Below, in pieces: positions 294 to 367 of a DNA stretch of 26,231 bases (position 1 is the first letter of the stretch; each line of letters begins with the position of its first letter). The position numbers and the translations under genes were made by a program. The stretch comes from a virus: IMG/VR virus record IMGVR_UViG_3300042731_005304; one strand, written 5' to 3'. Below the pieces are notes generated by a model. That model ran no database searches, was not told the DNA's origin, and was given only the letters and a program-made list of their open reading frames with translations.

Positions 294-367
294 TAGGACG
301 GGGCGGAGTTGAACCGCCGACCTTTCGCTTATAAGGCGAATGCTCTAACCTGTTGAGCTACCGTCCC
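294..367 (-). tRNA. tRNA-Ile (anticodon UAU, decodes AUA)
   Basis: Minus-strand cloverleaf. Acceptor gggacgg/ccgtcct, D-arm gctc-aacaggtta-gagc, anticodon stem ttcgc/gcgaa with loop ctTATaa, T-arm ggcgg-ttcaact-ccgcc. Length is 74 nt. Its D-arm and anticodon stem are very similar to tRNA-Thr(CGT) at 11520..11593. Confidence 0.75.

Follow-up and report, generated by a model that had tools for sequence, protein, structure and literature searches.

A phage tRNA-Ile gene with an encoded UAU anticodon, a plausible TilS-independent decoder of AUA

Introduction

AUA stands alone among sense codons in that bacteria rely on an essential modification enzyme, dedicated to this task, to decode it. The usual bacterial decoder, tRNA-Ile2, is encoded with a CAU anticodon and must be lysidinylated by TilS. 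A tRNA-Ile encoded with UAU would instead read AUA through U34-A pairing, so that no lysidinylation would be needed. Such a gene was noticed in a 26,231-nt stretch of viral DNA (IMG/VR record IMGVR_UViG_3300042731_005304), all of which we refer to as the window. It raises a series of questions: is the gene intact, is its product an isoleucine tRNA, where did it come from, and what would a phage gain from it? A preliminary description had proposed that this rare kind of tRNA lets an AT-rich phage decode AUA without host TilS, and that it is related to a tRNA-Thr(CGU) of the same genome by duplication and anticodon switching.

Results

An intact tRNA-Ile(UAU) gene

The gene and its immediate surroundings comprise the following features.

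294..367, minus strand: tRNA-Ile, anticodon UAU, 74 nt, with G1.U72, G2-C71, G3-C70 and A73 (ARAGORN, Rfam, fold, acceptor register)
160..235, minus strand: tRNA-Glu(UUC), 58 nt downstream of tRNA-Ile (ARAGORN, Rfam)
393..421, minus strand: sigma-70-like promoter match TTGAAA-17-GATGAT, ~25 nt upstream of the tRNA-Ile 5' end (consensus match only)
466..499, minus strand: terminator-like hairpin with T-run, between the vault-like gene (stop 694) and tRNA-Ile (consensus match only)

ARAGORN places the boundaries of tRNA-Ile(tat) exactly at 294-367 on the minus strand. Rfam model RF00005 agrees, matching 367->294 over model positions 1-71 of 71 with 73.6 bits (E 1.3e-14; gathering score 29), the top tRNA score of the window. 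The gene is therefore genuine, as first described, and its strand can now be added. The tRNA reads GGGACGG-UA-GCUC-AACAGGUUA-GAGC-A-UUCGC-CUUAUAA-GCGAA in its first half and continues after GCGAA with AGGUC-GGCGG-UUCAACU-CCGCC-CCGUCCU-A. Its anticodon loop, C32-U33-U34-A35-U36-A37-A38, has 7 nt and closes on a 5-bp stem. Because U33 and A37 flank UAU, no other register yields a different triplet, and ARAGORN likewise reports UAU, with no shifted loop.

All stems are paired, with G1.U72 as the sole non-Watson-Crick pair, and the minimum free energy of −29.7 kcal/mol (z = −3.3) was matched by 0 of 200 shuffled sequences. U8, A14, G18G19, the GTTC motif of the T loop and C61 are all present. An encoded CCA is absent from all 10 window tRNAs, this one included.

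Six promoter-like sites occur in 800 nt, vs 1.0 expected. The tRNA-Ile and tRNA-Glu genes are probably co-transcribed, judging from their arrangement, and the terminator-like hairpin upstream suggests that the pair forms a transcription unit of its own.

Isoleucine identity

In E. coli, the identity pairs recognized by IleRS are U12-A23, C29-G41 and C4-G69. The phage tRNA has the first two of these along with A73 and A37/A38, which are likewise E. coli IleRS elements; C4-G69 is absent, with A4-U69 in its place, such elements being species-specific. U12-A23 and C29-G41 are also common to Thr tRNAs. At the acceptor end the tRNA is of Ile type, with A73 and G3-C70: among 17 distinct Ile(TAT) tRNAs that we collected, all have A73 and none has the C3-G70 of Met and Thr tRNAs. 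Its G2-C71, G3-C70 and A73 resemble the Ile2(CAU) class.

Two other assignments were considered and rejected. A threonine tRNA would carry G1-C72, C2-G71 and G35-U36, usually along with C3-G70 and U73, whereas this tRNA has G1.U72, G2-C71, G3-C70, A73 and A35. A lysidine-dependent Ile2(CAU) would require C at position 34, which is T in the DNA. When nhmmer profiles were run with the anticodon masked, the tRNA scored 54.7 bits against Thr, 52.4 against Ile2-like CAU and 54.0 against Ile(TAT). Masked profiles of this kind cannot separate Ile(UAU) from Thr, so that it is the anticodon and a handful of individual positions that mark the tRNA as Ile.

The window holds one CAU tRNA, which we classified by the discriminators of elongator Met, Ile2 and fMet given by Silva et al. 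(PMC1635315).

9458..9531, minus strand: CAU tRNA with C3-G70 and C11-G24, elongator-Met-like, not Ile2(CAU) or fMet

Since this only CAU tRNA is Met-like, Ile(UAU) is the sole AUA decoder visible in the 26 kb. Searches for TilS, IleRS and an Ile2(CAU)-type tRNA found none of them within the 26-kb window; TilS or an Ile2(CAU) tRNA may lie elsewhere in what is probably a much larger genome.

AUA usage in the phage genes

AUA is hardly avoided by the phage genes. In 34 hand-picked minus-strand ORFs, ATA accounts for 168 of the 500 Ile codons (34%) and for 2.3% of codons overall. In an automated ORF set its share is 0.31, where third-position composition at four-fold sites predicts 0.39, an obs/exp of 0.79. 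That ratio falls in the upper quartile of viral and of cellular loci with 33-48% GC and is reached by about 21-23% of comparison loci, which makes it high, not extreme. Across related loci, which are partial, AUA obs/exp showed no correlation with whether Ile(TAT) was present. AUA is heavily used in the window, at 31-34% of Ile codons in its ORFs; the epithet AT-rich is only moderately true for a dense minus-strand gene block of 40.9% GC.

A common chassis with tRNA-Thr(CGU)

The likeness that had suggested duplication involves one other tRNA of the window.

11520..11593, minus strand: tRNA-Thr(CGU), with the canonical Thr acceptor G1-C72, C2-G71, C3-G70 and U73

The near-identity of the two tRNAs is real. 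Over the core (positions 9-49) they agree at 36 of 41 positions, or 35 of 38 with the anticodon masked, and their D stems, anticodon stems and variable loops are identical. This core identity is the highest of 7,908 different-isotype pairs drawn from 131 class-I tRNAs, and the TTCGC stem, looked for in 183 tRNAs of the window and 44 viral loci, turned up in Ile(TAT) and this Thr(CGT) only. These observations are what favors an origin of one gene from the other, in either direction, by duplication in this genome followed by an anticodon switch.

Such a duplication is nonetheless very improbable. A recent duplicate should be similar throughout, but identity drops to the background value of 0.55 in the acceptor stem and T arm and is 0.73 over the full length. 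At least 25 tRNAs of other genomes are nearer to Ile(UAU) over the full length than the window Thr(CGU) is. The nearest are an Ile(TAT) of locus L001 (0.81), unrelated cellular Thr(UGU) tRNAs (0.78-0.81) and a Saccharibacteria Ile(TAT) (0.80); the viral Ile2-like CAU tRNA L231 also falls within 0.78-0.81 and gives the nearest acceptor-stem match (GGGACTG vs GGGACGG, with A73). The Thr(CGU), for its part, has the profile score of an ordinary Thr tRNA (65.7 bits vs 43-50). Moreover, duplication would need two anticodon changes as well as replacement of 1-72, 2-71, 3-70 and 73.

The shared stem-loop is also widespread: it turns up across unrelated bacteria, archaea and viruses in tRNAs of the Thr(UGU/CGU), Ile2-like CAU and Ile(UAU) kinds. 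In a scan of one genome per prokaryotic species, TTCGC-CUNNUAA-GCGAA was found, among the matches listed, in 69 Thr(TGT), 11 Thr(CGT), 4 CAT and 2 Ile(TAT) tRNAs; the matches listed include Actinomycetota, Acidobacteriota, CPR and Nitrosopumilaceae, with the two Ile(TAT) from Paceibacterota and Saccharibacteria. Among the matches listed for viral contigs, the anticodons were CAT (57), TGT (52), TAT (9) and CGT (2). Acceptor ends, read with a U8-anchored register, divide by isotype as follows.

Thr on the chassis, n=88: 1-72 is G-C in 87, 2-71 is C-G in 86, 3-70 is C-G in 79, 73 is U in 78
Viral CAU on the chassis, n=31: 1-72 is G-C in 24, 2-71 is G-C in 30, 3-70 is never C-G, 73 is A in 26
Ile(TAT), n=17: 1-72 is G.U in 7, G-C in 6 and A-U in 3; 2-71 is C-G in 11 and G-C in 4; 3-70 is never C-G; 73 is A in 17

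Because they never have C3-G70, the viral CAU tRNAs on the chassis are of Ile2 type by the rule of Silva et al. The core that Ile(UAU) shares with Thr(CGU) is, by these comparisons of sequence, a widespread chassis of ANN-box tRNAs. Since the chassis is widespread, foreign tRNAs are nearer and the acceptor ends are unrelated, each typical of its own isotype, the duplication proposed earlier is unsupported.

The D loop of the window Thr(CGU) (AGCCGGCUA) and its acceptor (GCCAA...) are very like those of Nitrosopumilaceae Thr(UGU), e.g. L056 and L058, which probably reflects convergence on the common chassis.

The Ile2-like acceptor end of Ile(UAU) favors a different origin. The most economical route would be for an Ile2(CAU)-type tRNA to have changed C34 to U, or for an already existing Ile(UAU) to have been acquired horizontally. 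The G2-C71 of 30 of the 31 viral chassis CAU tRNAs, and the lack of C3-G70 in all of them, support an Ile2-type source. A recombination confined to the central domains of Thr(CGU) and Ile(UAU) is possible.

Ile(UAU) tRNAs in cells and phages

Rarity, which had been claimed for this tRNA, holds for bacteria. Taniguchi et al. list nine tilS-lacking species with tRNA-Ile(TAT) and some Firmicutes with both systems (PMC3575796), and Köhrer et al. speak of "very few" bacteria with such a tRNA (PMC3919564). It does not hold for phages. Among 43 loci picked solely for a Thg1-like gene, six carry Ile(TAT) (L025, L027, L033, L037, L041 and L044), mostly directly after Leu(taa), and the usual neighbors of phage Ile(TAT) are Leu(TAA), Arg(TCT) or Lys(TTT). 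Bystander tRNAs, that is, those not selected by our search patterns, include 10 Ile(TAT), 8 GAT and 5 Ile2-like CAT among 340 distinct viral tRNAs, and 0 Ile(TAT) among 136 cellular ones. Ile(UAU) thus appears to be enriched in large phages relative to cells, the samples being small and non-random and the counts indications rather than frequencies.

In the literature on phages we found one explicit count of Ile(TAT): among 10 Ile tRNAs of L. curvatus prophages, 7 have CAU and one each UAU, GAU and AAU (PMC10688831). Ile(TAT) does not occur in every phage: the tRNA-rich phages of GC-rich hosts that we inspected (Ochrobactrum and Streptomyces phages) have GAT only, and the best matches to the window tRNA among annotated phages are about 78% identical and of other isotypes.

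Two further observations concern the comparison set. The "tRNA-Ile(tat)" called at 7546-7639 of L025 is 94 nt long, its variable or T region being enlarged by ~20 nt, and may contain an insertion or intron or be a miscall. Metagenome-assembled genomes of Paceibacterota (L061) and Saccharibacteria (L079) have a tRNA-Ile(UAU) on the chassis of the phage tRNA, 0.80 identical to it; AUA decoding via UAU may be common in CPR lineages.

A probable large-phage setting

ARAGORN finds 10 tRNAs and one tmRNA, every one of them on the minus strand of the window, and tRNA- and translation-related genes lie in the same minus-strand block as tRNA-Ile(UAU). Pfam and NCBIfam matches include a DHH phosphoesterase, a PncA nicotinamidase, ClpP, a non-specific endonuclease, an HNH endonuclease, a class I RNR, NT5C, a Pol-X-like nucleotidyltransferase, a Thg1-like protein and an ATP-dependent DNA ligase. 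The features discussed below are these.

1-21, minus strand: 5' part of a further tRNA, cut at the window edge (reverse complement ...TCCACCGTAGCTCAGT)
694-3375, minus strand: major-vault-protein-like protein, 893 aa, with MVP shoulder, vault repeat and SPFH/Band-7 domains
3615-4433 and 4442-5335, minus strand: two adjacent divergent thymidylate-synthase (ThyA)-like genes, far below family cut-offs
8658-9278, minus strand: ClpP homologue (Pfam/NCBIfam)
11183-11518, minus strand: RF-1/GGQ-domain protein, 111 aa, ArfB/PrfH-like, below all NCBIfam cut-offs
12038-12113 and 12117-12191, minus strand: tandem tRNA-Asp(GUC), 3 nt apart
13433-14752 and 22349-23281, minus strand: cysteine desulfurase (NifS/IscS/DndA-like) and radical-SAM protein
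19077-19343, minus strand: tmRNA, 267 nt vs a 374-position model, Rfam 73.4 bits
23283-24059, minus strand: Thg1-like 3'-5' nucleotidyltransferase (Pfam/NCBIfam)

The partial tRNA at 1-21 shows that the tRNA array runs past the window. The tmRNA, whose tag peptide ARAGORN gives as GEEQFLMAA*, the RF-1/GGQ-domain protein, encoded directly upstream of tRNA-Thr(CGU), and ClpP form a ribosome-rescue and proteolysis set. The second tRNA-Asp(GUC) copy, with 57 bits vs 71, differs strongly in its D arm and acceptor, being either a duplicate in decay or a variant form. A G1.U72 wobble occurs in both Ile(UAU) and Met(CAU), in the same window as the Thg1-like gene.

A vault-like protein is unusual in a phage. 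Its relatives in the phage database are only LR756500, LR756501 and LR756503 (45-49% identity), unannotated uncultured phage genomes of 462-735 kb. There is no local synteny with these huge phages; locally the window has the vault-like gene alone in common with them, and GC differs. The two ThyA-like proteins, encoded near NT5C, RNR and the DHH phosphoesterase, may belong to the pyrimidine hydroxymethylase type and help to make modified DNA bases. Possible roles of the cysteine desulfurase and the unassigned radical-SAM protein are Fe-S assembly, DNA phosphorothioation and tRNA thiolation; no wobble or position-37 modification pathway could be matched to these two genes of the window.

Megablast of 25 kb against GenBank phages gave no match, and exact-protein matches were found only in two short fragments (1.3 and 3.3 kb) of JGI sample 3300037126. 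Thg1-like relatives occur in 43 IMG/VR contigs (37-61% identity, up to 241 kb), in 162 GenBank phage records and in many cultured large phages. The best of the 43 Thg1-selected IMG/VR loci, L005, has only 4 genes in common with the window. Huge phages carry up to 67 tRNAs along with tRNA synthetases, tmRNAs and tRNA-modification genes, TilS-like ones included (PMC7162821). The window is very probably part of a large or huge bacterial phage. With one gene locally in common with the huge phages and a different GC, a Bacteroidetes host (PMC7162821) is at most weakly hinted at. A eukaryotic giant virus, which the vault-like, Thg1 and Pol-X-like genes might have suggested, was rejected in view of the bacterial-type tmRNA, ClpP, HNH endonuclease and phage relatives.

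Discussion

Probable function of the phage tRNA

We think it likely that the gene encodes a functional tRNA-Ile(UAU) that adds a TilS-independent AUA decoder to the host tRNA pool. We infer that it is expressed, charged and specific for AUA. The tRNA would be transcribed with tRNA-Glu from its own candidate promoter, processed, and given its CCA by cellular or phage enzymes. With A37 modified to t6A, it would be charged by the host IleRS, or by a phage IleRS encoded outside the window, through A35, U36, A37/A38 and A73, and would read AUA by pairing of U34 with A. The independence from lysidine claimed in the preliminary description follows by construction from T at position 34. The benefit would be greater AUA-decoding capacity for a phage in which AUA is a common codon, and the tRNA would form part of a large-phage set for A-ending codons (Leu-UAA, Arg-UCU, Lys-UUU and Ile-UAU).

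TilS-independent decoding by such a tRNA is plausible, since UAU tRNA-Ile replaces the lysidine system in M. mobile (PMC3575796) and in a B. subtilis suppressor of tilS deletion (PMC3919564). Charging depends on the synthetase: an E. coli-type IleRS (Trp905) charges UAU tRNAs poorly and an Arg-type enzyme well, efficient charging requiring Arg or Lys, not Trp, at E. coli position 905 (PMC3575796). Thus, the function of the phage tRNA hangs on the IleRS of the host or on a phage IleRS outside the window. Unmodified U34 can also misread AUG on some ribosomes (PMC3575796), and discrimination against AUG hinges on the ribosome and on competition by tRNA-Met (PMC3575796, PMC3919564).

Other readings of the gene

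The same poor charging by E. coli-type IleRS could mean that the gene is non-functional or does not act as an Ile tRNA in vivo, its product being uncharged, a decaying copy, a source of fragments or a regulator. The missing C4-G69 and the wobble at 1-72 are consistent with this, as is at least one degenerate tRNA in the window, the second Asp(GTC). We regard this reading as scarcely probable: the tRNA has the window's top score, intact stems and all the conserved tertiary positions, and AUA is not avoided in the phage genes. The wobble itself recurs, in 7 of the 17 Ile(TAT) tRNAs, and its recurrence together with invariant A73 indicates selection.

A different question is whether the tRNA is kept for codon supply or for counter-defence and takeover. 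In the latter case, independence from host factors would have been selected, so that AUA is still decoded during infection after depletion, cleavage or shut-off of tRNA-Ile2 or TilS; in a variant, the tRNA would let the phage infect hosts that decode AUA poorly. The UAU anticodon does remove the TilS step, Ile(TAT) was seen among viral but not cellular bystander tRNAs, and the window encodes tRNA-repair and ribosome-rescue functions (Thg1-like protein, tmRNA and RF-1-domain protein). Huge phages have been proposed to redirect host translation and to mend tRNAs cleaved by host defences (PMC7162821). However, the material examined gave no indication that any nuclease or defence system acts on tRNA-Ile2 or TilS, and the contrast between viral and cellular tRNAs comes from small, non-random samples. 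Many phages, T4-like ones included, use the TilS-dependent CAU form (PMC1524935), and CAU is commoner than UAU on the viral chassis (57 vs 9 among the matches listed), so that phages clearly tolerate dependence on TilS. Some loci even hold both forms. We therefore judge counter-defence, with its variant, to be unlikely, and favor the addition of AUA-decoding capacity.

A broader proposal, that large phages systematically prefer an encoded UAU and so uncouple AUA decoding from host TilS, is speculative and rather unlikely. If it were true, TilS, an essential enzyme of low abundance, could limit the rate at which a burst of phage tRNA is modified, or TilS activity could be lost during infection through shutdown or targeting. 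The tRNA would then be a determinant of host independence or host range, rather than a gene for codon supply alone, with its utility set by the wobble pocket of the host IleRS.

Comparison with known systems

The phage UAU tRNA-Ile would bypass the enzyme dependency that otherwise attaches to AUA, and our comparison suggests that this bypass is rare in cells and routine in large phages. In the tRNA-Ile2(UAU) of M. mobile and in the tRNA-Ile(TAT) of Bifidobacterium and Neorickettsia (PMC3575796), an encoded UAU likewise reads AUA without lysidine, and tRNAs of the M. mobile type share a CUUAUAA-type loop with A37. They differ from the phage-borne tRNA in being cellular, in hosts that lack tilS, and in having co-evolved with a specialized IleRS (Arg865) and ribosome. 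The B. subtilis suppressor is a tRNA-Ile1 with G34U, in which one anticodon change gave a working UAU decoder of AUA in an ordinary bacterium with Arg in the wobble pocket of its IleRS; U34 carries no modification there, and misreading of AUG is weak, at ~10^-3 (PMC3919564). That tRNA arose in the laboratory from tRNA-Ile1(GAU), whereas the phage tRNA is natural and combines an Ile2-like acceptor with a core of Thr/Ile2 type. How U34 avoids misreading AUG on ordinary bacterial ribosomes, and whether the IleRS pocket (Arg vs Trp) limits phage host range, are questions that the phage tRNA raises.

The tRNA-Ile2(CAU) of T4-like phages (PMC1524935) and L. curvatus prophages (PMC10688831) also supplies AUA decoding where phage AUA use exceeds that of the host, and viral CAU tRNAs use this anticodon stem-loop chassis too, with an acceptor resembling that of the window tRNA (G2-C71, non-C3, A73). 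Unlike the window tRNA with its T34, they need TilS, whether that of the host or, possibly in some huge phages, one encoded by the phage. In many bacteria and archaea, tRNA-Thr(UGU/CGU) matches the phage tRNA in the D stem, the TTCGC/GCGAA stem, the CU-NNU-AA loop and the AGGTC variable loop, and differs in G1-C72, C2-G71, C3-G70, U73 and G35. Ile(UAU), Ile2(CAU) and Thr tRNAs thus share one anticodon-arm chassis, as far as small samples establish, which raises the question of how easily tRNA identity shifts within ANN codon boxes. For annotation, the lesson is that similarity between the cores of Ile and Thr tRNAs is no evidence of recent duplication. Set beside these systems, the phage tRNA-Ile(UAU) is a further example of a known strategy, not a new mechanism.
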